Of a stretch of DNA of 40,561 bases, positions 26,195-36,381 are shown piece after piece. The stretch lies in the IMG/VR virus record IMGVR_UViG_3300029220_000017. The stretch is one strand, 5' to 3'. The DNA comes from a virus. The notes under the pieces are model-generated. The model ran no database searches, was not told the DNA's origin, and saw nothing but the letters and a program-made list of their open reading frames with translations. The first letter of the stretch is position 1. Each line of letters opens with the position of its first letter. Both the position numbers and the translations under genes were made by a program.

Positions 26195-27532
26195 ATGAAA
26201 AGAGCCGCTTTATACGTGCGAGTAAGCACGCAAGAGCAGAAGAACAGTGGATTGTCCGTTGATTCGCAGATAGATGCGCTTGAAAAATATTGTGAAGAGC
26301 AAGGATATACGGTTGCTGGTATTTATAACGATGCCGGCATATCTGCACGTAAAAAATACACAAAACGCCCTGCCCTTTTGCAGTTACTTGAGGATTGCAA
26401 GAAACACGAGATTGATGTAATACTCTTCACACGCCTTGACAGGTGGTTTAGAGCTGTTGCAGGGTATTATGAGGTACAAAGTGTCCTTGATGCGTGTAAA
26501 GTGCCTTGGAGGGCTATCTGGGAGGATTATGAGACAGAGACAAGTCAGGGAATATTTAAAGTGAATATTATGCTGTCCGTAGCGCAGGCAGAGGCAGACA
26601 GAGACAGCGAAAAAATACGGTCTGTTATGGAATTTAAACGGAACAACAAGGAATATATTGGCGGAAAAGTGCCGGTAGGTTATCGCATAGAAGGGAAAAA
26701 GATTGTAAAAGACGAAAAGACGCGAGGAATAATTGAGGATATGTTTGAGCACTATTTCCAGACCTTCTCAAAAGCAGGAACCGCCGACTATATTTTAAGT
26801 AAATACCCTGGTTTTGTAAGAACCAGGACGAGGTTGGTTAAGATTATGTCTAGCCCAGCTTATCGCGGCGAAATGTATGGAGTAAAAAACTACTGTGAGC
26901 CGTACATCACAGAGGAGCAAGCGCAAAAAATCAACGAAGTATCCAGCCAAAAAACTTGGACAGATTGCAGGAGGCGTATTTACATTTTCTCCGGCTTGAT
27001 GAAATGCCCGATTTGCGGTTGCAGGCTTTCCGGGTGTGCAATAGGCAAAAAAGGAAAAAAGTACAAAGTATATCACTGCCCCCACTCTGTCGCACAAAAG
27101 CACAAGACCTACACGCGATCAGAAAAAAAATTAGAAACATATATGCTCAATCACATCGAAGAAAAAATACAGTTAGATGTATTAAGGGCAGAAGGTCGTG
27201 TGAAGGCAGGCGGAAACGATGCGGAAAAGAGAAAGAAAAAATTATCCAGCGAGTTGGGAAGAATTAATAAAATGTTTGAAAAAGGTAGGATAACAGAAGA
27301 ATACTATGACGAAAGATATGAGGCTATATCAAAGGAATTAAAAGAACTATCCCAAACCGCCGCAACGGAAGAGTTAGAAACTAAGAAAAAAATACAAAGC
27401 AGATTTCCTGACGGTTGGAAAGATATGTATATGCAGTTAGAAGAACAAGGCAAGCAGGTGTTTTGGAAAAGTATTGTAAAAGAAATAAAAATATCCCCCA
27501 ACGAATTTGTGGAGGATATTATATTTTTTTAG
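26195..27532 (+). CDS. int: Large serine recombinase (integrase)
   Basis: Catalytic N-terminus AALYVRVSTQEQ, resolvase and recombinase domains, Zn ribbon CPICGCRLSGC...YHCPH, and a C-terminal coiled coil. Confidence 0.95.
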   Translation: MKRAALYVRVSTQEQKNSGLSVDSQIDALEKYCEEQGYTVAGIYNDAGISARKKYTKRPALLQLLEDCKKHEIDVILFTRLDRWFRAVAGYYEVQSVLDACKVPWRAIWEDYETETSQGIFKVNIMLSVAQAEADRDSEKIRSVMEFKRNNKEYIGGKVPVGYRIEGKKIVKDEKTRGIIEDMFEHYFQTFSKAGTADYILSKYPGFVRTRTRLVKIMSSPAYRGEMYGVKNYCEPYITEEQAQKINEVSSQKTWTDCRRRIYIFSGLMKCPICGCRLSGCAIGKKGKKYKVYHCPHSVAQKHKTYTRSEKKLETYMLNHIEEKIQLDVLRAEGRVKAGGNDAEKRKKKLSSELGRINKMFEKGRITEEYYDERYEAISKELKELSQTAATEELETKKKIQSRFPDGWKDMYMQLEEQGKQVFWKSIVKEIKISPNEFVEDIIFF

Positions 27533-27535
27533 TTT

Positions 27536-27591
27536 TTGTTATGCAGTAACTAGCCGTAACCACCGGGTTAAAACCAGTTACTGTATAACAA
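27536..27591. other. Candidate attP for the serine integrase
   Basis: 16-bp arms TTGTTATGCAGTAACT / AGTTACTGTATAACAA match at 15 of 16 positions as an inverted repeat. They are separated by 24 bp and begin 4 nt after the int stop. Confidence 0.5.
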
Positions 27592-27634
27592 AATATTAAA
27601 AATAAAGGAGATACACTTACATTATACAGAAAGA

Positions 27635-27667
27635 AAGAGGACGTTTCAAGCGCCCTCTTTTATTTTT
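27635..27667. terminator. Bidirectional terminator between int and the convergent cassette
   Basis: Stem AAGAGGACG / CGCCCTCTT with one mismatch. It is followed by a T-rich tract on both strands and overlaps the stop of the 105-aa gene. Confidence 0.6.
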
Positions 27668-27963
27668 CGCAAAACTGAACGATATTCTCGTGGGTACATT
27701 GCTTCTATGGCTTTCATATGTTCGTCAAGCACGCGTAACAAGTGCTCAAAGTCTGCTTTCCGGGCTACCTCTTTAAACTCAGATTCCGGCTCGGATGCAT
27801 AAGAATAATATGCTGTTTTTGGTGTTGGTTGGTTTGGTGCTTTATCTGGCTCCAAATTATTGCGTACATTGTATAAAATCGAAAGCCGTTCGCAAGTGGC
27901 GTAGGTTGTTTTTCCTGCCTCTAATGCCGCAATTTCGGCATTAATTTCGCTCATATTAATCAT
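27646..27963 (-). CDS. Hypothetical protein (105 aa), last gene of the cassette
   Basis: An ORF in the cassette orientation: helical ends around a Pro-rich middle (EPDKAPNQPTPKTAYYSYASEPE). Confidence 0.55.
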   Translation of the reverse strand: MINMSEINAEIAALEAGKTTYATCERLSILYNVRNNLEPDKAPNQPTPKTAYYSYASEPESEFKEVARKADFEHLLRVLDEHMKAIEAMYPREYRSVLRKIKEGA

Positions 27964-27980
27964 TGCGGCACCCCTTCCTT

Positions 27981-28379
27981 TTATCGGTCTAATTCTGCTA
28001 ACGCCCTGCCTAGAGCCGCCTGATCTGTGCTAGACAGATTACTGTCATGCATCATGTCTTTAATGGTCTCTTTTACCTGCATTTTTGCATCGTTGTAAGA
28101 GTAATGGCCTCTCACATAGTGCTGACCTCTACGGGCATTGCTATAGTCGCCGTAATCCATGTCAGGATAACGCCCGCGACTGTATCTTCCTGACGTGTCC
28201 CAGTCGCCGCCACGGCTGTATTCGCTACCACCTTCCAGATACATAATCTTGTCGATATTTTTAATTGTGTCTGTCAGTTTGTGGACTGCCTCCAAATCCC
28301 CGGCACTCATATCGCCTTTGTTTGAAATCTCGTCCAGCTCTCTGCACATCATCTTTTTTAATTTGTGTAATGATTCCAT
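27981..28379 (-). CDS. Hypothetical protein with an R/G/Y/D low-complexity core (132 aa)
   Basis: N-terminal helix (LDEISNKGDMSAGDLEAVHKLTDTIKNIDKI), then YSRGGDWDTSGRYSRGRYPDMDYGDYSNARRGQHYVRGHYSY. Confidence 0.55.
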   Translation of the reverse strand: MESLHKLKKMMCRELDEISNKGDMSAGDLEAVHKLTDTIKNIDKIMYLEGGSEYSRGGDWDTSGRYSRGRYPDMDYGDYSNARRGQHYVRGHYSYNDAKMQVKETIKDMMHDSNLSSTDQAALGRALAELDR

Positions 28380-28392
28380 TTTTCGCCCTCCT

Positions 28393-28815
28393 TTACGCTA
28401 CTCTCTCGGCGATTAAATTGCTATTGGCTATACTAATTGCCTGCGTAGATGTATTTTCGACTGCGATTGTTATGCAACATCCGCGCGGAACGTCAATAAA
28501 CGCCGCTGTAAATACATTAAAATATTCGCCTGCCGCCGCAGGTGTTACGATTGCTGTCGCACTATTTAATGGTTCTCCGGCGATTGCCAGGGCAATAGAA
28601 ATAGGCGTCACGGTTCCACCGGCAGGTATGGCGATATTAGCCCCGAAGCTGACCTTATAGCGTGCCCTGCACTGGTTTGTAAGTCCTCTAAGGGTCACAA
28701 TTCCTGCCCCCTCCCGGTGTGCAATACAGTTGCCGCACTTTACGGCTGTCTCTGTAAGCGGTAAATTCTGCCCCGCCGCTACGGTTACAATATTACTATT
28801 GGTAAATTCTGCCAC
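28393..28815 (-). CDS. Beta-rich, Cys-containing small protein (possible TNF/C1q-like or DUF3992-like jelly roll)
   Basis: 140 aa, GTG start after AAGGAG. Alternating hydrophobic beta pattern, Cys at CGNC, C49 and a CC pair. The resemblance to BclA-C-terminal / Ena-type folds is by eye only. Confidence 0.5.
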   Translation of the reverse strand: MAEFTNSNIVTVAAGQNLPLTETAVKCGNCIAHREGAGIVTLRGLTNQCRARYKVSFGANIAIPAGGTVTPISIALAIAGEPLNSATAIVTPAAAGEYFNVFTAAFIDVPRGCCITIAVENTSTQAISIANSNLIAERVA

Positions 28816-28834
28816 GTTATATCACTCCTTTTTT

Positions 28835-28866
28835 AAATAATAAACGGCGGAACGATTGCCCCGCCG
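28835..28866 (-). terminator. Internal terminator/attenuator inside the cassette
   Basis: On the minus strand: CGGCGG, a 10-nt loop, CCGCCG, followed by TTTATTATTT. It lies immediately upstream of the ribosome binding site of the 140-aa gene. Confidence 0.5.
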
Positions 28867-28931
28867 CTATAAGCATCATCGGCACAGGCCGAACAATCCC
28901 GTCAACGCAGGAAGCTGCTAATTATAAAATT

Positions 28932-29768
28932 TTAGCATCCGCAACCAGTATTGCATCCGCAGTTACCGTACTGATATGGTGCAGAAACTGGAAAAGCCGG
29001 CACCGGTCTAGGGTTGTAGTAAGTAAACTGTCCCTGCATATACGCCTTTAAGGTTTCGTTCTGTGATGCCTGAGAAGCCGCTAACTGTGCCGCAAATAAC
29101 TGCTGATTTTGCTCGGCAATCTTAGCGTCCTTAGCTTCGATTCTCTGCGCCGTGAGGGCATCTAGAATGGCTCTAGCGTTGTTATTCTGGTTGTCAATGA
29201 TGTCTCTTGTGTTGTTTGCATTGTTAAAGTTTGTCTGGCAAAAGCCGTTTGTAACTTCCTGCTGAATTGCATTGGTATTTATCGCCATATTGTAGTTAAC
29301 GCCCGCGATAGCCTGTTTGTTATCACAACAGCACTGTGCTAACTGCGCCTGCAAAGCGTTGAAACTCTGCATATCTGCGATCTGTCCCTGCTGGATTGCG
29401 TTTCGTGTATCGTACCCGTTCTGCTGGATTGTGCTATTTGTTCCTGCAAATCCGTTGAGAAGAGAGGTATTCACCGCATAAAATCCGTCACAAATACCGC
29501 TATTGATGGTGTCGCTCTTGCGCTCAAGGGAGGAAATGCCGCTATCAATCTGGCGCTGTAAGGTTGCGAAATCAGAAGCTAATACATAGTTATCTGCCAC
29601 TCCTCCGCCACCATTATTCCATCCATTTCCGTTTCCCCATCCACAGAAGATAAAGAGGAAAAGAATGATAATCCACCAAGCACCGTTACCCTCGCCAAAT
29701 GCGCCGTTGTTGTTGCCTGTGACTGCCGCCAAATCTGCCGGGCTCATTCCGTCTGTTGTTAATCCCAT
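28932..29768 (-). CDS. Membrane-anchored N/Q/G-rich, Cys-rich protein (278 aa)
   Basis: A Gly/Asn tract, then a TM helix (WWIIILFLFIFCGW), then GNGNGWNNGGGG. This is followed by a long N/Q-rich helical region with a CCC triplet, and a C-terminal GNCGCNTGCGC. Confidence 0.6.
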   Translation of the reverse strand: MGLTTDGMSPADLAAVTGNNNGAFGEGNGAWWIIILFLFIFCGWGNGNGWNNGGGGVADNYVLASDFATLQRQIDSGISSLERKSDTINSGICDGFYAVNTSLLNGFAGTNSTIQQNGYDTRNAIQQGQIADMQSFNALQAQLAQCCCDNKQAIAGVNYNMAINTNAIQQEVTNGFCQTNFNNANNTRDIIDNQNNNARAILDALTAQRIEAKDAKIAEQNQQLFAAQLAASQASQNETLKAYMQGQFTYYNPRPVPAFPVSAPYQYGNCGCNTGCGC

Positions 29769-29868
29769 GAAATCACTCCTTTTTATTTATTTAAAACCCT
29801 TTAAAAGGTTTTGAAACTGTGTCGCCATCCCTTGTAACTGGTTATACTGTTGCTGGCTCATTTGCCCG

Positions 29869-30375
29869 CTATTTAGTAGGTTTTGCACTTCCTGCTTCGG
29901 GTCCCCTTGAAACTGCTGCCTGAACTGTTGAAACTGCTGTATCATCTGCATTGGATTGAGATTCATTCAATACCCTCCTTCTTAATGTCTCCATTTGCCT
30001 CTCTAAGGCTTTTAAGCGTTCCTCGTAGTTGATTGGTTGGCTAGATTGTGAAAGCTCCGCTGTGGGCGAATCCGAGCCCTTACGCTTATACTCAAACACC
30101 TCTAAAAACGGTCTGCCCGTCTGGTCTGCTCTTTTTTCGTAAAAAATTGGTGCCTGGCTGTCCCACAAACGGACAAAAGAATTTGGTGCTACTAAATACG
30201 CCTCCGCCGCGCCCTGCCCCTGTACCCAAATCCGCTCATCGGGATTAGATTGTTGTTGCATCTGTTGGGGTGGTGCTTGCTGTTGTTTTAGTCGATTTAA
30301 CTGGTCGAGATAATCCGGCTGTGGATATTGTGCGTACTGTGGATACTGTTGTGGATATTGTGGATAACCGAACAT
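29869..30375 (-). CDS. Q/P/Y-rich protein with a globular core and coiled-coil tail (168 aa)
   Basis: N-terminal YPQYPQQYPQYAQYPQPDY...QQQAPPQQMQQQ. Core IWVQGQGAAEAYLVAPNSFVRLWDSQAPIFYEKRADQTGRPFLEVFEY. The start abuts the upstream stop (TAAATG) and follows GAAGGAGG. Confidence 0.6.
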   Translation of the reverse strand: MFGYPQYPQQYPQYAQYPQPDYLDQLNRLKQQQAPPQQMQQQSNPDERIWVQGQGAAEAYLVAPNSFVRLWDSQAPIFYEKRADQTGRPFLEVFEYKRKGSDSPTAELSQSSQPINYEERLKALERQMETLRRRVLNESQSNADDTAVSTVQAAVSRGPEAGSAKPTK

Positions 30376-30753
30376 TTATTTTCCTCCTTCCCTCCAGTAA
30401 TATATTGGTGTCATTGCTCCACTGTCCCACGTATCGTAGTAATTGCCATCAATTACCGCTATAACGTGTCCTGACAATGCTAAAATATAACTCCCTTCTG
30501 GGTGGTTGTTTGCAAATTCCGAGACGGTACAGGTCATGTATTCGTCTGGGATTATATAACGGCTAAATCCATTGTCTTTGAGGTATGCGCCCCATACTGC
30601 GTTAGCCGAGGGCATATCTGACAATATCAAACCGTACAGTGCAAGCTGCATATATGTTTCTTCCCACGTCTGACCCATAGCCTTTGAGATAGCGCGCACG
30701 GTGCAATCCCCCACTTTTGCCGCCGCTGGATTAGGATTCCAATATTGATACAT
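30376..30753 (-). CDS. Putative papain-fold (Cys/His) peptidase-like protein (125 aa)
   Basis: A candidate nucleophile in VGDCTVRAIS and a downstream LSGHVIAVIDGNYYDTWDS segment. The fold assignment comes from the motif pattern only. Confidence 0.35.
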   Translation of the reverse strand: MYQYWNPNPAAAKVGDCTVRAISKAMGQTWEETYMQLALYGLILSDMPSANAVWGAYLKDNGFSRYIIPDEYMTCTVSEFANNHPEGSYILALSGHVIAVIDGNYYDTWDSGAMTPIYYWREGGK

Positions 30754-30786
30754 CTTTTTCGCCCTCCTTATAGTTTTATTATCTCA

Positions 30787-30825
30787 AAAAAATAAGCGTG
30801 TCACCACGAAGGCAACGCGCTTATT
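30787..30825 (-). terminator. Strong intrinsic terminator separating the late operon from the downstream cassette
   Basis: On the minus strand: ATAAGCGCGT, a 13-nt loop, ACGCTTAT, followed by TTTTTTT. A possible extended -10 (TGAGATAAT, 30787-30779) follows directly. Confidence 0.8.
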
Positions 30826-30858
30826 TCTCGCATAATTTTTAAATCATCTTTAGTTTTC

Positions 30859-31110
30859 TTAAAGGCTGTCTATGTATGGGATCGTGCCGGGAACTAATAA
30901 AATTTTTTCCACGGCGCAGCTCCACAGCCCCTGTAATCCTCTCGTGCTTATATTCATTTTCTCGGCGGCTTGCTCCTGCGTTAATCCGTCAAAAAGCAAG
31001 TACTGTACAGTTTCACGCTCCCGCAAAGTTAAACGGGCGCATGACAAGGCGTAATCAATAAATTGTTTATCGCCTAATCTCCAGAGTTTTTTTATCAAAC
31101 TTCTGTTCAC
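30859..31110 (-). CDS. Sigma-70 region-4-like / LuxR-type HTH protein (83 aa)
   Basis: LTLRERETVQYLLFDGLTQEQAAEKMNISTRGLQGLWSCAVEKI matches the region-4 pattern (L..rEr.v..l...G.tq.e.A..m.is.r.v). GTG start after GAGGTGA. Confidence 0.6.
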   Translation of the reverse strand: MNRSLIKKLWRLGDKQFIDYALSCARLTLRERETVQYLLFDGLTQEQAAEKMNISTRGLQGLWSCAVEKILLVPGTIPYIDSL

Positions 31111-31144: not shown

Positions 31145-31492
31145 TTATTTCATTTTGTCCAGTCCCAAAATTGCTCTAACTTTGTCTGGCAATAAATCTG
31201 GGTTGATTTTGCCGATGTTTTCCACGATGGAACCAAGCTCCATCAGAATGATGTAGACGCACACGCCTGCGGCAATAGGCACCTGAAATCCTAAGTCTAC
31301 ATATTTCTGGGCGTAGTCAATAAGATACGCAAGAACCACAAGCATAATAGAACCAAATTTATGGTACAATCCTTTCCTCATTTCTGAGGATTTCCACTCA
31401 TGGTTAGCGCAGGCAGCTACTCCGCCACTAGCCAAGTCAAAAACTACAAAAATACACGTCATTAAGGGCAACATAATATCACTCATCTCCAT
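31145..31492 (-). CDS. Holin (toxin-secretion/phage-lysis holin family, TcdE-like Phage_holin_4_1)
   Basis: Three hydrophobic segments and the family pattern D..SG...A......SS....G...K ... ELGSIVENIG...P. Confidence 0.8.
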   Translation of the reverse strand: MEMSDIMLPLMTCIFVVFDLASGGVAACANHEWKSSEMRKGLYHKFGSIMLVVLAYLIDYAQKYVDLGFQVPIAAGVCVYIILMELGSIVENIGKINPDLLPDKVRAILGLDKMK

Positions 31493-31497
31493 TCCTC

Positions 31498-32022
31498 CTA
31501 TTTCACAATTACTATTCCTCTGTACTTTTCATTTTTACATCTTCTTTTGTTCTCTTTTTCGACTGTTGTTACGTTCTTTTTCCCGTCCGAGAATCTCCAT
31601 ACCCTGCCCGTCTTGCTGTCTTTGAGCAAAATGACTGTGTGAATAGGTGAACCTTCTTCAAACAAAATCATGTGTCCCTTTTTCAAGTGTGATTCGATTT
31701 TGTCATTGCTCATAATTTTGTGATAGACTGCCGGCTTTCCAGGGCAGATCTGGTTGATTCCCTTTACGATTTCTGTCAACGGATATTTGGCGCCACATTT
31801 TAATTTTCTTCTGGCGTACTGTAAACACTGCTGCATATTTTTTTTAATGCCTTTGTAGCGCAACGCCATATAAAAAGCTACCAGACTACAGCCGTGCGTG
31901 CGAATAAATGGGGATTTAAAATTATACTGGCTTGGTACCGGGATTTTTCGCCCGTTATCCAATATGATTCTCCACGGATATTTCTTCTTGCTGGTCTTAT
32001 TTTTATTTGCTACTATTCTCAC
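31498..32022 (-). CDS. Putative C39-like / papain-fold peptidase (candidate lysin)
   Basis: THGCSLVAFYMALRYKG is a Cys-nucleophile-like motif and GSPIHTVILL a His motif. The basic N- and C-termini are notable. The start GTG 32022 follows GAGGTGA. The ORF-track start at 32073 is TTG and overlaps the upstream small ORF. Confidence 0.4.
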   Translation of the reverse strand: MRIVANKNKTSKKKYPWRIILDNGRKIPVPSQYNFKSPFIRTHGCSLVAFYMALRYKGIKKNMQQCLQYARRKLKCGAKYPLTEIVKGINQICPGKPAVYHKIMSNDKIESHLKKGHMILFEEGSPIHTVILLKDSKTGRVWRFSDGKKNVTTVEKENKRRCKNEKYRGIVIVK

Positions 32023-32026
32023 TGCT

Positions 32027-32170
32027 TCACCTCGTGTTTCGCTCAGCCACAAGTTTCTCGTGCCCGGACTCAATCAGTATTTTTTTGACTTCGATTTTTA
32101 ATAACCTTGGCACCTCGTCAAAAGTCTTTTTACCGTCAATGATTCTCTTGGCATATAACTGCGCTATCAT
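32027..32170 (-). CDS. XkdX / CD1375-like small protein (47 aa)
   Basis: GGGAGG lies 6 nt before the ATG. MIAQLYAKRIIDGKKTFDEVPRLLKIEVKKILIESGHEKLV resembles small proteins that follow tail-fibre genes in Firmicutes phages. Confidence 0.45.
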   Translation of the reverse strand: MIAQLYAKRIIDGKKTFDEVPRLLKIEVKKILIESGHEKLVAERNTR

Positions 32171-32457: not shown

Positions 32458-35400
32458 TTACACTCCTAACACATATCTTAATACAAAACCTTGATTATTA
32501 ACGCCTATTCCATTTTGAGCGTTGTTGGACTGATTTACGTCAGCACCCTGTATAAATGTATCACCTATATATATATATTTGTTTAATCCGTAATATGGGT
32601 TACACATTAACATACCATCTCCCGGTCGCCAGGCAACGTGCTGTTTAGGTACGAAGAACGATGACCACCACCAATTATCAACAGAATGTTTGTTAGTATC
32701 ATAGTGACTCCAGACAAATACCGCACCGGTTAACTGTTCCGATATCGGTTGATCGAGTGTAAATTTATGACTACTGTTCATCCAGTATCCTACGCCATTG
32801 GCATCCCACAAAATGTTATTTACACCTAATTCACATTTTGCATTTTTAGATATAATTTTTATGGTATTAGCCACAAGTTCCATATATTCGCCGCCATCCA
32901 CGAGTATACGGTTGTAGGCGTAAATATCAAGTTTATCACCATTTAATATCGTATAATCGTTATCAACATATAACCCTTTTCCTACACTCTCATATAGGTC
33001 AGTATATGTTGACCCGTTTTTGACGGTCAAAGAAAGTCCTGTGACATCTTTGGTTTTATCATAATACAATTCCAGAGCTGCTTTTCCACCTTTGTGAACA
33101 TCGTTCGGGTCATTTGTTTGTTGCGTAGAAACAATGATGTTGCGGTCGGATTGCATGACAGAACCGGAACCGTCATAAGTTTTATCGCCGTCCGTGTTGG
33201 TAATCACGATAGGCGCTGTACCAAACCGTACAATCTCATCATTACCTTTTCGCACAGCCATTCCGCTACTGTCCAATAATGTATTTTGACCTAGGGTATC
33301 TCCACGCATATCGCCGACTATTAATCCTGTTCCGTCTTCATATTTCATAAAGTTGGTTGCGGTTTTGGCGGCTTCTTGCTTAGCTTCATTTACAGCTGTC
33401 ACATCTATACAGCTAATGTTGGCAACATACCATTTTGTTCTTCCGTCATTATTTCGATCTATCTGAAAATATACACATCCCTTACGTTTACCTTCGGGAA
33501 CAGTAACATCATACACTGCTTTTTCCCAGCCATCGGATATAGCCGACGTATAACGTGGACTGATGTTATACGAATCCCATGAGTGACCGGAAGACATTTC
33601 CAAGTACCAAATACTAGCGTGTAATTCCAAGTCTCCAGATATACGCTTTCTATCTACGTAAATTGTATATGTATGATCTGGGAATACTGGAAAGCCAGTT
33701 GAATTATTAAAATTATCTGTGGTTTTTATTATATTTACTTTGGATCCATTTGGTGCGGTAACTCCATCTACAAGCGTTGTTATCTGTGGTTTATCAGCGT
33801 CAAATAATGGATTTATCCATAAATTGGTGCCATTTAATCCATCTTCACCTTTTTCTCCTTGTGGCCCCTGTGGTCCAGTTGCGCCAATCTGTCCGTTAAG
33901 TACTATTCCTGAGCTTGTATAATAAGCGGTTATCACCCGTGTTCCAGATTTTCCAAGGGCAAAAGCTTCATACGCGTTTCCTTTTGCTAAACCTTTCATA
34001 CCGATAAATACATGAGTGGCTCTAATACCATTCCATGTATTAGTCATTGCAGAACCGCATTCTAATAATATTTTTCTTGTGCCTGAACTTAGTCCACTTG
34101 CATCGGCAGTAAACAAACATATAATCTTTCCAGTTTTGACTGCATTTAATGGTTCTTCTAATAGGTTGCTTAGTTTGTATGTGTCATAGCTTTTTATGCT
34201 TTCTACGGTGCTATTAGATGGATTTATAACAGCTAATGTATGACCTCTTCCTAGAGAAAAAGAATATTTTGTTCCGTTTATAATAATATATGACACGGTT
34301 GAGCTAAGGTCTGCTAACGTATCATAGTTAGTTCCAGATACAGTAATATACATTGCATTTCTTCCGTCCGCTCCTTGTATTCCTTGTGGACCCCGTGGAC
34401 CAGTGTCGCCTTGCGGTCCAGTTGCACCCTTTATCAACGTCCACTTGTATTTTGACGGGTCTGTAGAATCATTTGGTGAAAAATCAGTATATTGTCCGAT
34501 AAACATCTTATTTGCACTGTCGCCAACACTGAAACCGGTTTTACCATCAGAACTATTTGCATACGCTATGTGTAAATAACTAGTCTTACCGTCAACTCCA
34601 ATACCTGGAATACCCTGTTCTCCTTTCGGACCCTGCGCACCTACGAACCGACTCCAAGTATATTTTTTAGGGTCCGTAGAATCATCTGGTGTAAAATCAA
34701 CGTATGTACCTATATAGGTGCTTGGTGTCTCGGTTAGCTGAGAACTGGAAGTAGGGTTAGCGACCGATGAATACTTGATGTGAAAGTAAGATGTCGCTCC
34801 CGAAGCACCGGTAGCTCCTCTTGGTCCTTGTATTCCCTGCTCGCCTTTCTCACCTTGTAAGCCTTGTAAGCCTCTAGGACCAGTATCACCTTTGTCACCT
34901 TTTTCGCCCTTTTCTCCTTGGGCTCCTTGAGGACCTTGAGCGCCTGTTGCACCCTTATCACCTTTAACACCCTGTGGACCAGTGTCTCCTTTTTGCCCTG
35001 TAGCGCAGATACCTTCTGTCCTTTTTACCGTATTGTCGGTATAGGTGATAACCGACCTTGTCCAGATGTATTTACCGTCAACCCATGTAGGCGGTGTAGT
35101 AGACCACGAGCCCCCAGACAACGTTGTGGCAGATGTGGATTGGTAGTATTCTTCAACGATTGATGCTATGCCTTTTCCAGATGAGCCAGTAGCACCAGTT
35201 GCGCCAGTAATACAGGTACCGTTTTTATCCGGTGAATATGTTACATTACCCGCGCCATCCGTAATTTTAGTTCTCATCCACATGTATTTGCCGTTGGTCC
35301 ATGTGGGCGCTGTGGTAGACCACGAGCCCCCGGAAAGTGATGTGGCAGACGTGGAAAGATAATATTCAACGTCAACTGTCTCAATTTTAGATTCGATAGA

Positions 35401-36381
35401 TGTTTTTGTTTCTTCCCATGCTTCTTCCAAATTTTGATTAGAACCAAATGTAACACTTTTGGCAGATATTGCAAGCTTGTAAGTCCCGTCTTTCGCTTTG
35501 TAGTATCTTAAAAAGTTTTCTGCATCTCCTAAATATAACTGGCCGCTTTTATCCACATAAAATCCCTGTGTGGTGTTATTGATAGAGTCTTTTACTCCGG
35601 AATATAACGAGCCGTCTGTGATATTTAACCCACCAATAGTTGCGCCAAATGCCACTAAATCTTTAACAGACACTTTTTCTGCGGTAACTGATTTGGCAAT
35701 TATTACAGAGCCATCTAATCCATTTTGATACTTTACGTCAGACGAAGCCACTGCTTCGCCAAGCGCATTTACATTTAGTTTGTAGTACAGACCATCTTCG
35801 CCTAACACTACAAGTTTCTCGGCCTTAACCGTATTACCCTCAATAAGGTCTCCGCTAATGGTTACACCGATAAGGTGCCCGGTGATTTTTTGATCGCCAA
35901 CAACAACATCTTTAATCAAACCGGACTGGGCGTAGAAATATTCCATTGCGGCCTTGCCGATGTTGGAAAAATCAATATTTGCAAATTTTATGTTTGCGCT
36001 TTCCGCATCAAGTTTTTTGGTATTTAGGTTTTCGATATCAGCATTAACTGCCTTAAAATTTTCAGCTGTTAAGCCTACAAATTCACCGTAGGACTTCGCT
36101 ACCGCATTTACTGCTCTTTGTGCTACTTCTGCGGCAGAGTCGTCTGTTGGTGGTGCCGTAATGTTTCCGGTAATCCACGCTTTCCCGCCACTGACACGAA
36201 TTTTTACTGTGTCACCTGTCTTACAATTAATCGCCATCTGTGCGGGGGTTTCGTCTGCTCCACCGTCAATGTGGACATATGCCGTTTTTTCGTCAATTCG
36301 GAGGACTTTTGCAACCGTATCATATGCTTTTGTCTTGCTTTCTTTCATCGCCGAGGCGATTTCTTTTACAAATTCATTCAA
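32458..36381 (-). CDS. Tail fibre / receptor-binding protein with collagen-like repeats
   Basis: 1307 aa with four Gly-X-Y blocks. The largest covers residues 462-528 (34798-34998); the others are at 34600-34641, 34363-34428 and 33832-33897. Two internally duplicated modules are present. Confidence 0.85.
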   Translation of the reverse strand: MNEFVKEIASAMKESKTKAYDTVAKVLRIDEKTAYVHIDGGADETPAQMAINCKTGDTVKIRVSGGKAWITGNITAPPTDDSAAEVAQRAVNAVAKSYGEFVGLTAENFKAVNADIENLNTKKLDAESANIKFANIDFSNIGKAAMEYFYAQSGLIKDVVVGDQKITGHLIGVTISGDLIEGNTVKAEKLVVLGEDGLYYKLNVNALGEAVASSDVKYQNGLDGSVIIAKSVTAEKVSVKDLVAFGATIGGLNITDGSLYSGVKDSINNTTQGFYVDKSGQLYLGDAENFLRYYKAKDGTYKLAISAKSVTFGSNQNLEEAWEETKTSIESKIETVDVEYYLSTSATSLSGGSWSTTAPTWTNGKYMWMRTKITDGAGNVTYSPDKNGTCITGATGATGSSGKGIASIVEEYYQSTSATTLSGGSWSTTPPTWVDGKYIWTRSVITYTDNTVKRTEGICATGQKGDTGPQGVKGDKGATGAQGPQGAQGEKGEKGDKGDTGPRGLQGLQGEKGEQGIQGPRGATGASGATSYFHIKYSSVANPTSSSQLTETPSTYIGTYVDFTPDDSTDPKKYTWSRFVGAQGPKGEQGIPGIGVDGKTSYLHIAYANSSDGKTGFSVGDSANKMFIGQYTDFSPNDSTDPSKYKWTLIKGATGPQGDTGPRGPQGIQGADGRNAMYITVSGTNYDTLADLSSTVSYIIINGTKYSFSLGRGHTLAVINPSNSTVESIKSYDTYKLSNLLEEPLNAVKTGKIICLFTADASGLSSGTRKILLECGSAMTNTWNGIRATHVFIGMKGLAKGNAYEAFALGKSGTRVITAYYTSSGIVLNGQIGATGPQGPQGEKGEDGLNGTNLWINPLFDADKPQITTLVDGVTAPNGSKVNIIKTTDNFNNSTGFPVFPDHTYTIYVDRKRISGDLELHASIWYLEMSSGHSWDSYNISPRYTSAISDGWEKAVYDVTVPEGKRKGCVYFQIDRNNDGRTKWYVANISCIDVTAVNEAKQEAAKTATNFMKYEDGTGLIVGDMRGDTLGQNTLLDSSGMAVRKGNDEIVRFGTAPIVITNTDGDKTYDGSGSVMQSDRNIIVSTQQTNDPNDVHKGGKAALELYYDKTKDVTGLSLTVKNGSTYTDLYESVGKGLYVDNDYTILNGDKLDIYAYNRILVDGGEYMELVANTIKIISKNAKCELGVNNILWDANGVGYWMNSSHKFTLDQPISEQLTGAVFVWSHYDTNKHSVDNWWWSSFFVPKQHVAWRPGDGMLMCNPYYGLNKYIYIGDTFIQGADVNQSNNAQNGIGVNNQGFVLRYVLGV

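Follow-up and report, generated by a model that had tools for sequence, protein, structure and literature searches.

A cassette of seven tightly packed open reading frames (ORFs), all on the minus strand, occupies positions 27646-30753 of the virus record IMGVR_UViG_3300029220_000017 (IMG/VR), between a strong terminator hairpin and attP, the attachment site of a large serine recombinase. The whole stretch analyzed (40,561 nucleotides (nt), hereafter the window) is a circular siphophage genome of roughly 40.5 kb, whose recombinase and cassette genes recur identically on contigs of 40.4-40.6 kb. The cassette measures 3.1 kb, about 8% of the genome. The minus strand is the direction of lytic transcription in this phage, and the gene order toward attP runs from the tail fibre through small ORFs, g191, a holin and g83 to a hairpin followed by seven uridines (U7), the seven ORFs and a closing hairpin (Table 1). 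A preliminary description, made from the same DNA, had proposed a terminator-insulated cassette of Cys-rich, low-complexity and beta-rich proteins that would assemble a surface or spore layer. The layout it gave was confirmed, with hairpins of z = -5.6 and -3.4 bounding the block, one of z = -4.5 inside it, and with integrated copies showing that it adjoins attP in this phage.

Table 1. Features of the cassette and its surroundings, with positions in the window (aa, amino acids).
Feature	Position	Strand	Remarks
Tail fibre	36381..32458	-	1307 aa; collagen repeats
g191	31498-32073	-	Cys/His protein, 191 aa; conserved, upstream of the holin
Holin	31492..31145	-	PF05105
g83	30859..31110	-	83 aa; sigma-70 region-4/LuxR-GerE-type helix-turn-helix (HTH) as the whole protein; directly upstream of T1
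T1, intrinsic terminator	30787..30829	-	-22.1 kcal/mol, z = -5.64; 0/200 shuffles as stable; followed by U7
Candidate extended -10	30778..30786	-	TGAGATAAT; between T1 and the g125 ribosome-binding site
g125	30753..30376	-	candidate papain-fold thiol enzyme
g168	30375..29869	-	YPQ/Q-rich N-terminus
g59	29966..29787	-	59 aa; out-of-frame overlap with the 3' end of g168
g278	29768..28932	-	hydrophobic segment, CCC, Cys tail
RNA element	28816..28931	-	g278-g140 spacer; three hairpins
g140	28815..28393	-	TNF/C1q-type jelly roll (predicted)
g132	28379..27981	-	R/G/Y/S-rich centre
g105	27963..27646	-	small helical protein; optional last gene
T3, terminator-like hairpin	27634..27660	-	closes the cassette; -13.4 kcal/mol, z = -3.4
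attP of the serine recombinase	27522..27604	.	imperfect inverted repeat; crossover AACCCGGTGG at 27569-27560
Large serine recombinase	26195-27532	+	Resolvase, Zn_ribbon_recom; convergent with the cassette

The compositions noted for the products were likewise accurate. Low-complexity sequence rich in Q, N, Y, G and R dominates four of the seven proteins. By residue, g59 contains 31% Q, g168 14% Q and 9% P, g132 8% R, 9% G and 7% Y, and g278 13% N, 10% G and 9% Q, together with ten cysteines that include the triplet CCC146-148, and a tail reading GNCGCNTGCGC. Only g278 has a hydrophobic segment (residues 29-43), and no export signal was found in any of the seven products. A 24-aa Q-rich peptide, suggested as a possible product of 29787-29861, turned out to be the C-terminal part of the conserved 59-aa ORF g59.

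The genes travel together. Among 33 loci from bacterial genomes and metagenome-assembled genomes (MAGs) of Oscillospiraceae, Lachnospiraceae, Acutalibacter, Butyricicoccus and others, the order g125-g168-g59-g278-g140-g132 was kept in 16, at 30-80% identity, which bears out the expectation of a co-occurring block. The other 17 loci are mostly truncated contigs or retain the g278-g140(-g132) core. When all window ORFs were compared, no further gene within 8 kb on each side was common to these loci. The identical order was found in Dulem virus 33, Dulem virus 35 and bajarodcaudo virus 5, while Butyrivibrio phage Ceridwen carries the first five genes only, their order unchanged. The small ORF g59 is conserved in 18 loci and g132 in 27, directly after g140; homologues of g105 occur in ten loci, each time following g132.

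In close relatives, the block is absent. Both g83 and the whole block are missing from 40 loci whose g191 is 70-82% identical to that of the window phage, the holin being 78-81% identical in those block-less phages where a holin match was found. In these relatives the slot holds a GH25-like lysin (recognized from sequence) and then an integrase, other cargo or, in locus L134, a Lamassu defence system (LmuA, 2e-30; LmuB, 2e-51). Further, in different prophages the block is accompanied by unrelated lysis, integrase and structural genes. Since its order is kept among unrelated phages while close relatives lack it, the block is accessory cargo rather than core machinery. It is a self-contained, horizontally mobile accessory operon of siphophages infecting gut and rumen Clostridia, real as an operon and moving as a unit among thousands of such phages, and in our reading it serves neither as a core component of the virion or the lysis apparatus nor as a conversion module specific to spores.

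Phage morons, defined in lambdoid phages, are autonomous transcription units between core phage genes. The block shares with morons and cargo hotspots its terminator bounds, its patchy presence among close relatives, its differing positions and its Lamassu-bearing slot. Unlike typical morons, it is unusually large, widespread and conserved as a multi-gene unit, and it has an internal regulatory RNA. Phage cargo operons are a known kind and the individual families are catalogued yet uncharacterized; the module stands out among cargo operons by its size, its spread, its composition and its internal regulation.

The block comes after the lysis genes in most genomes, and in seven of the ten loci tested its upstream neighbour is an endolysin, non-homologous from case to case (Amidase_3, Amidase_2, NlpC/P60+SH3, CHAP). 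In L098 and L101, of a Lachnospiraceae prophage lineage, and in Dulem virus 35, this neighbour is a minor capsid protein (Phage_min_cap2). The scaffold and major capsid genes of Dulem virus 35, which are related to those of the window phage, lie directly downstream of the block, and no terminator was found from the block to the scaffold gene; a 66-aa region-4 HTH ORF and a strong terminator stand just upstream of its g168 homologue. Dulem virus 35 is temperate, with its own lysin and integrase 15 kb from the block. The block adjoins attP and the integrase in the window phage, L002, L084 and L089. Ceridwen has no integrase gene, and its authors observed lytic growth only and consider it probably virulent (PMC7372960). 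Neither proximity to attP nor a temperate lifestyle is therefore required, given the head-cluster location and the integrase-less Ceridwen. The preliminary description had placed the cassette in a lysogenic-conversion slot and raised the question whether only temperate phages of spore-formers carry it, naming the occurrence of the block in strictly lytic phages as one finding that would refute its idea. The slot is a cargo hotspot in this lineage, as the Lamassu of a relative indicates, but head-cluster copies show that the block does not need it, and the restriction to such hosts and phages is not supported on either count, with Anaerobutyricum hallii, described as non-spore-forming, as host and the block present in the integrase-less Ceridwen, for which growth was observed to be lytic only and which corresponds to the refuting case just named. 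Genes for collagen-like fibre proteins are present in the window phage and in Ceridwen and absent from Dulem virus 35.

Several versions of the block contain additional small genes. In the head-cluster version (L125:4940-5672, which is Dulem virus 35, and L095-L102) extra genes separate g125 from g168: a coiled-coil protein whose C-terminus carries a membrane segment and which looks XhlA-like by eye, although Pfam gives no confirmation, and a 93-aa membrane protein, followed by the HTH ORF and the terminator. Between g278 and g140 of L095-L102, 0.6-1.4 kb of extra ORFs intervene. Directly before g125, an extra ORF of 45-60 aa with the pattern xxRL(I/V)xxG(I/F)xxxxAxxxxxxYxxxGxxxxLExY is present in L001:3867-4073, L002:3207-3356, L084, L086, L089, L091, L093 and L094, and a tiny Cys-rich or zinc-ribbon peptide, such as MEPNTSENKTAAPCPCGRETCCPDCGLCEKK, in L100, L109, L110 and Dulem virus 35. 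In L134:9784-14072 (IMG/VR contig 2833376260_000002), where g191 and the holin are 81% and 79% identical to their window counterparts, the Lamassu system consists of LmuA, LmuB and a 246-aa protein without assignment. The GH25-like lysin of the block-less relatives comes directly after the holin, the place taken by g83 and the cassette in the window.

Family searches returned catalogued but uncharacterized groups. Six of the seven products matched PHROG families at 2e-8 to 2e-60, every one annotated as of 'unknown function' (g125, phrog_3754, 3e-29; g168, phrog_21718, 5e-20; g59, phrog_22984, 2.7e-20; g278, phrog_16490, 1.7e-40; g140, phrog_20016, 2e-60; g132, phrog_28802, 1.9e-8), and g105 gave no PHROG, Pfam or PDB match. 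Pfam and NCBIfam scans of all seven proteins, a PADLOC scan of nine proteins at E <= 0.1 and PDB sequence profile searches with g125, g140, g168, g132, g105 and g278 returned no relatives; a match of g168 to the archaeal virus protein VP5 (PDB, E = 7e-4) reflects a short coiled-coil motif and was not regarded as homology. No PHROG lysis annotation fell on any of the products. In line with the preliminary description, Pfam, PHROG, NCBIfam and PADLOC thus assign none of them to a virion, spanin or lysis family, and as the seven proteins lack a characterized relative their function cannot be read from homology. The literature searched held no description of the module, of its RNA element or of its mobility.

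These families are large. Profile searches with g140 and with g125 each retrieved at least about 8000 related proteins, and the g140 family comprises at least 897 clusters at 50% identity. The g125 of the window belongs to a 90%-identity cluster of 1298 sequences, and the exact g59 sequence is present on 538 contigs. The module is thereby among the more widespread uncharacterized multi-gene units in phages of the dominant butyrate-producing Clostridia found in the gut of humans, mice, lemurs and ruminants.

The block carries its own putative signals for transcription. T1 looks bidirectional, because its A-tract pairs with the U-tract, and terminator-like hairpins stand ahead of the module also in L002, L085, L088, L089, L110 and L125. 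The candidate extended -10 that follows T1, missed by a consensus scan because it has no -35 element, has a counterpart, TGTGATAAT, at the equivalent place in L110. Upstream of T1, g83 matches Pfam Sigma70_r4 (1.4e-4) and GerE (7.5e-3) and a PHROG 'sigma factor' family (1.4e-5); in L085, L106 and Dulem virus 35 the module has a comparable small region-4 ORF ahead of it, and g83 is a candidate regulator moving along with the module. At the other end, the loop of T3 holds the -35 hexamer of a promoter-like site (TTGAAA-17-TATAAT, 27649-27621), which has the best score of the region (11/12) and is kept in integrated copies.

The spacer between g278 and g140 is filled, in most divergent loci, by a conserved RNA element of 100-140 nt. 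In the window it consists of hairpin A (about 28912-28897), an invariant (A/T)TG(T/G)TC motif, hairpin B (about 28893-28878) and the terminator-like hairpin C (28868-28843; -18.3 kcal/mol, z = -4.5), followed by a U-rich run and the g140 ribosome-binding site. A second hairpin or attenuator had been suspected here; its stem is real but is only the last of the three. The three hairpins fold in at least 15 divergent loci, with minimum free energies (MFE) of -37 to -60 kcal/mol. In hairpins B and C, compensatory changes affect 9 of 14 pairs and 97.7% of the cells are paired, a result reached by 0/500 shuffles, the slid controls giving 39-65% paired. Hairpin A folds in 19/19 sequences, its stem sequences being unrelated between lineages. 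Of 36 loci, 20 have the motif no more than 160 nt ahead of g140 (about 0.35 expected), and wherever further genes intervene between g278 and g140, a hairpin resembling a terminator still stands directly before g140.

From these sequence features, we read the element as a probable attenuator or processing element that would separate the expression of g140, g132 and g105 from that of the upstream genes. Like intrinsic-terminator attenuators and riboswitch-like leaders, the spacer has two upstream hairpins, a GC-rich stem with a U-run and compensatory changes. Unlike known attenuators, it matches no Rfam family, and an antiterminator pairing of the hairpin B 5' side with the hairpin C 5' arm has no covariation support (it could form in 83% of cells, no better than shuffles). 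A leader peptide starting at the invariant ATG/TTG is unlikely as well: there is no conserved peptide and no ribosome-binding site, and the compensatory changes favour RNA. The element was also located at L002:5881-5997, L084:7861-8003 and L125:7568-7707, among others. After the g278 stop, at a fixed distance upstream of hairpin A, there is a CATA(A/G)C motif (TATAAT in the window, 28926-28921), which could be a promoter -10, perhaps of sporulation type, or a processing site.

The best-conserved member of the module is g140, with invariant residues H33 R34 and C113 C114. Its AlphaFold2 (AF2) model, from a 70-sequence alignment, is all-beta with 11 strands (predicted local distance difference test (pLDDT) 92.4; predicted template-modelling score (pTM) 0.83). 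The best Foldseek matches in the PDB were the C-terminal domain (CTD) of F-BclA (9h38), ExsF (9h3d), ExsFA (7r1m), BxpB (8d02) and BclA (1wck), with E 3e-7 to 4e-6, template-modelling (TM) scores of 0.69-0.78, probability 1.0 and a root-mean-square deviation (RMSD) of 2.5-3.8 Å over the whole protein; TNF ligands (4-1BBL, EDA-A1), C1QL1 and some phage receptor-binding domains came next. In BFVD, the nearest entries are stand-alone 130-145-aa proteins from gut-phage MAGs, some labelled 'BclA protein', and the best 150 clusters of the g140 family are all short single-domain proteins (83-196 aa) without a fibre shaft.

Membership of the TNF/C1q superfamily was taken to mean a ten-stranded jelly-roll beta sandwich superposable on TNF ligands, C1q heads and the BclA-CTD. 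On the predicted model we are confident that g140 belongs to this superfamily at the level of fold, and not to the ExsFA/BxpB family. It shares the jelly roll with the BclA-CTD and ExsFA/BxpB of the Bacillus cereus group (1wck, 3twi, 7r1m, 8d02, 9h38, 9h3d), and like ExsFA/BxpB it stands alone, at about 140 aa and without an export signal. Unlike BxpB, it has no disordered N-terminal extension. Structural alignments gave 10-15% sequence identity to the Bacillus proteins (11-12% to ExsFA/BxpB), and the g140 profile found nothing at E < 0.7 among all PDB sequences, Pfam and NCBIfam being empty likewise; its HR 33-34 and CC 113-114 motifs are its own, and no sequence or profile link joins it to BclA, ExsFA or BxpB. 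It further differs from exosporium proteins in being phage-encoded, in hosts described as non-sporulating, with no constant collagen-like partner.

Two earlier options for g140 had been a TNF/C1q-type and an Ena-type jelly roll. The first agrees with the model. The second was rejected: no DUF3992 match was obtained at E <= 1, no Ena protein is among the best 50 Foldseek matches, and a Cys-rich extension at the N-terminus is missing from g140. The idea that g140 is a soluble version of the receptor-binding domain of this phage was ruled out by zero similarity to the tail fibre, and a role as adaptor for collagen-like fibres is weakened by Dulem virus 35.

In g125, nine residues are invariant among 67 sequences (N8 P9 D16 C17 R20 H96 D107 W109 S111). 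The AF2 model (pLDDT 95.3) places C17 at the opening of helix 17-26 and H96 at that of strand 96-101, so that an invariant Cys sits on a helix start and invariant His and Asp follow on later strands. This makes g125 a candidate thiol enzyme with a predicted papain-like Cys17-His96-Asp107 arrangement. The papain-like character noted earlier is upheld in topology (Cys on helix, His on strand), while the structural matches are weak: the best Foldseek match was Josephin-2 (E = 0.034, probability 0.92, TM 0.51), with nothing below 1e-3. Josephin-type papain-like peptidases and deubiquitinases (6pgv; BpJOS, 9f5t) have the Cys helix, the His strand and the later Asp in common with g125; however, g125 shows no sequence relationship to any MEROPS-type family in Pfam, and neither Pfam nor PDB sequence searches matched it to any clan CA family. 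About half of the g278 family starts with LSxxD(V/I)AA(V/L)(T/S)GNN, which resembles a double-glycine leader. A role of g125 as a C39-type leader peptidase was considered and dropped, as the fold search returned no C39 domains and the other half of the g278 family starts differently.

The longest product, g278, is laid out as an acidic N-terminus without K or R, a Gly-flanked hydrophobic stretch of 13-15 residues (29-43), an N/Q-rich region that is presumably helical and a Cys-rich tail; G43, G91, C146-148, Q236, N237 and P255 are invariant in its alignment (A4). Over 25 sequences, the N-terminal flank of the stretch holds 6 K/R and the C-terminal flank 41, which, under the positive-inside rule, makes a cytoplasmic location of most of the protein the more likely one. 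A kinship with YjcZ-type sporulation peptides had been suggested from the Gly-hydrophobic-Gly segment. This resemblance is compositional only, and none of the 18 family members matched an NCBIfam or Pfam model for YjcZ or tiny-TM proteins at E <= 0.05, nor did any other family recur in these member-by-member scans.

Among the remaining products, g168 has a small conserved beta-rich core (W50 V51 L70 D72 G87), a 'YVTRxELDAL' helix and a charged tail (alignment A6); it belongs to no Pfam family, and a member-by-member scan found nothing recurrent. In g132, helical N- and C-terminal segments flank the R/G/Y/S-rich centre with its 'HYVRGHYS' (alignment A8), and in g105 the invariant residues are E6 I11 E15 L27 D80 E81 M83 R92 Y94 R99 K100 (alignment A9). 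For g168, g59, g132 and g105, no relatives of known structure or function were detectable.

Taken together, we tentatively propose, with a probability of roughly 0.4, that the products form a membrane-tethered cytoplasmic complex that is made mainly in the late phase and functions independently of any particular virion or lysis system. In this model g278 would be held at the membrane by its short Gly-flanked segment and would present the N/Q-rich helical region, the CCC cluster and the Cys tail. Trimers of g140 would dock on g278, possibly via their own vicinal Cys pair or a shared metal, and the putative thiol enzyme g125 would process or cross-link its Gln-rich partners g168 and g59, with g132 and g105 as helical accessory factors. 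The internal attenuator RNA would set how much g140, g132 and g105 is made relative to the upstream genes, g83 together with T1 would gate the entry of transcription into the block, and production would most likely fall late in the lytic cycle. Such a late context is consistent with the endolysins upstream in seven of ten loci, with Phage_min_cap2 in L098, L101 and Dulem virus 35, and with Ceridwen, observed in lytic growth only, and we favour a host-directed or release-stage role over one confined to the lysogen.

Several points weigh against this proposal. The complex and the roles of its parts are putative; the topology of g278 rests on the positive-inside rule only, and its stretch is short for a membrane helix. 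No characterized enzyme family matches g125. Lone g125 homologues occur among the early genes of Tsamsa-like Bacillus phages, close to an ocr-like gene, and of Geobacillus GBK2, as well as in Lak megaphages, and those among early genes imply that g125 need not rely on the remaining six genes for its function. Ceridwen, L085, L111 and L112 lack the RNA element. Finally, the terminator, the possible extended -10 and the defence/cargo hotspot fit expression from the prophage at least equally well.

It is possible, if on balance doubtful, that the block is a prophage-expressed conversion, superinfection-exclusion or defence operon, with g278 as membrane effector or anchor and g140 as sensor or binding module. 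The terminator-bounded unit with its candidate extended -10 after T1, its presence or absence in close relatives, the Lamassu in the slot of a related phage and the location beside attP and the integrase here and in L002, L084 and L089 all speak for it. However, PADLOC returned zero matches, four of the seven proteins are of low complexity, and apart from g125 the set has no enzymatic or NTPase domains of the sort usual for defence. Ceridwen, again, carries the block without an integrase. In Dulem virus 35 the block is part of the head operon, and between it and the scaffold and capsid genes no terminator was found, so that a constitutive promoter would drive capsid genes in the lysogen.

That same head-operon location, downstream of the MuF-like Phage_min_cap2 in Dulem virus 35, L098 and L101 and with scaffold and capsid genes following in Dulem virus 35, could instead point to virion-associated accessories, be they decoration, fibres or packaged and injected proteins; g140 would then be a trimeric knob or decoration protein. 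Jelly rolls of the TNF/C1q type are frequent in viruses as fibre-knob and receptor-binding domains, and the collagen-like fibres of the window phage and Ceridwen would be natural partners of BclA/BxpB-type domains. We nevertheless regard this reading as unlikely. The block is swapped among phages whose structural genes are not related, and close relatives do not carry it. The conservation of g140 greatly exceeds what is usual for receptor-binding proteins, and neither a fibre shaft in the best 150 clusters, nor a likeness to the window tail fibre, nor a collagen-like protein in Dulem virus 35 could be found.

A lysis accessory, in which g278 would resemble a spanin or a holin partner and serve envelope disruption or lysis timing, appears improbable, despite the diverse holin/endolysin cassettes that the block follows (in the window phage, Ceridwen, Dulem virus 33, bajarodcaudo virus 5 and seven of ten loci), the N-terminal anchor, long helical region and conserved Cys of g278, which recall i-spanins, and the lack in the window phage of the GH25-like lysin (recognized from sequence) that its relatives have after the holin. 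Spanins go with a diderm host and a lipobox partner. The hosts here are monoderm Clostridia with no outer membrane to fuse, no lipoprotein-type signal peptide was seen among the seven products by reading of the sequences, and in Dulem virus 35 about 15 kb separate the block from the lysin gene; moreover, the end of a late operon is where cargo accumulates anyway.

The preliminary description itself had favoured a spore-coat, exosporium or surface-appendage module made of an anchor, a polymerizing jelly roll and a cross-linking Cys enzyme. The exosporium-like fold of g140, whose closest solved structures are the BclA-CTD, ExsFA and BxpB, the coat-like compositions rich in Cys, Tyr, Gln and Gly, the missing export signals, which would fit assembly within a mother cell, and the GerE-sized HTH protein upstream are all compatible with it. 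Ceridwen infects Butyrivibrio fibrisolvens, a rumen bacterium that does not sporulate. The integrated copies of the window phage are flanked by genes with exact products named A. hallii in public records; Anaerobutyricum is described as non-spore-forming (PMC13303155), but A. hallii keeps ten engulfment orthologues, which is unusual for a 'non-sporulating' species (PMC7924749) and means that the spore idea is weakened rather than excluded. With hosts described as non-sporulating, a lytic-only phage of B. fibrisolvens and a copy inside a head-gene cluster, a spore-layer function is unlikely as a general role, and since there is no sequence-level link to coat, exosporium, Ena or YjcZ families and viral fibre domains show the TNF fold just as typically, we consider this explanation very improbable.

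Just as improbable is a variant in which the module would build an exosporium-like cross-linked layer or matrix in the infected cytoplasm, to be released with the progeny at lysis. If true, the matrix would be a protective or adhesive coat or an occlusion-type matrix for virions, or else, in sporulating hosts, a phage-supplied outer spore layer, and a BxpB/BclA-type trimer, a Cys-rich rod, Gln/Tyr-rich substrates and a thiol enzyme would make up a transferable phage-borne 'coat-building kit' with its own regulatory RNA, a kind undescribed for bacteriophages. An exosporium-like structure would link phage cargo to bacterial surface and spore architecture, while a defence or exclusion system would be of a new type lacking the usual enzymatic domains. 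Whichever applies, seven 'hypothetical proteins' are now one unit with defined parts and boundaries, a regulatory RNA and natural knock-outs in the relatives without the block, and A. hallii lysogens and the plaque-forming Butyrivibrio phage Ceridwen offer tractable systems.

Upstream of the block, the tail fibre contains collagen triple-helix repeats, an ILEI domain and BppU-like and Big_13 segments, and it is followed by a 47-aa CD1375-like (XkdX-type) ORF at 32027-32170. Pfam and PHROG scans of the window phage showed no recognizable endolysin domain. They gave zero matches for g191, which may be the lysin of this phage.

On the other side of the block, five integrated copies (L116:11171-11798, L023, L040, L052, L074) were compared with the window, and the sequence switched from phage to host at AACC(C/T)GGTGG, window positions 27569-27560. 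The inverted repeat of attP surfaced as a long hairpin in the Rfam scan. The prophage inserts into the host's principal sigma-factor gene, rpoD (sigA), and splits it, the crossover falling at the TGG TGG codons of YATWWIRQ, a conserved region-2.3/2.4 motif. The literature searched contained no report of phage integration into rpoD, and no gene for a substitute sigma factor is present in the window phage; lysogens might tolerate the split through a second copy of sigA. The split rpoD fragment was found on at least 1000 contigs, the largest of 1.56 Mb, and intact alleles exist too. The N-terminal half would terminate in ...WWLRLVTA*. A 158-aa C-terminal fragment (RpoD model positions 214-370 of 370, E = 3e-80) lies directly downstream of g105, with trmK and then hisJ after it, and the promoter-like site in T3 faces outward, into this 3' fragment of rpoD.

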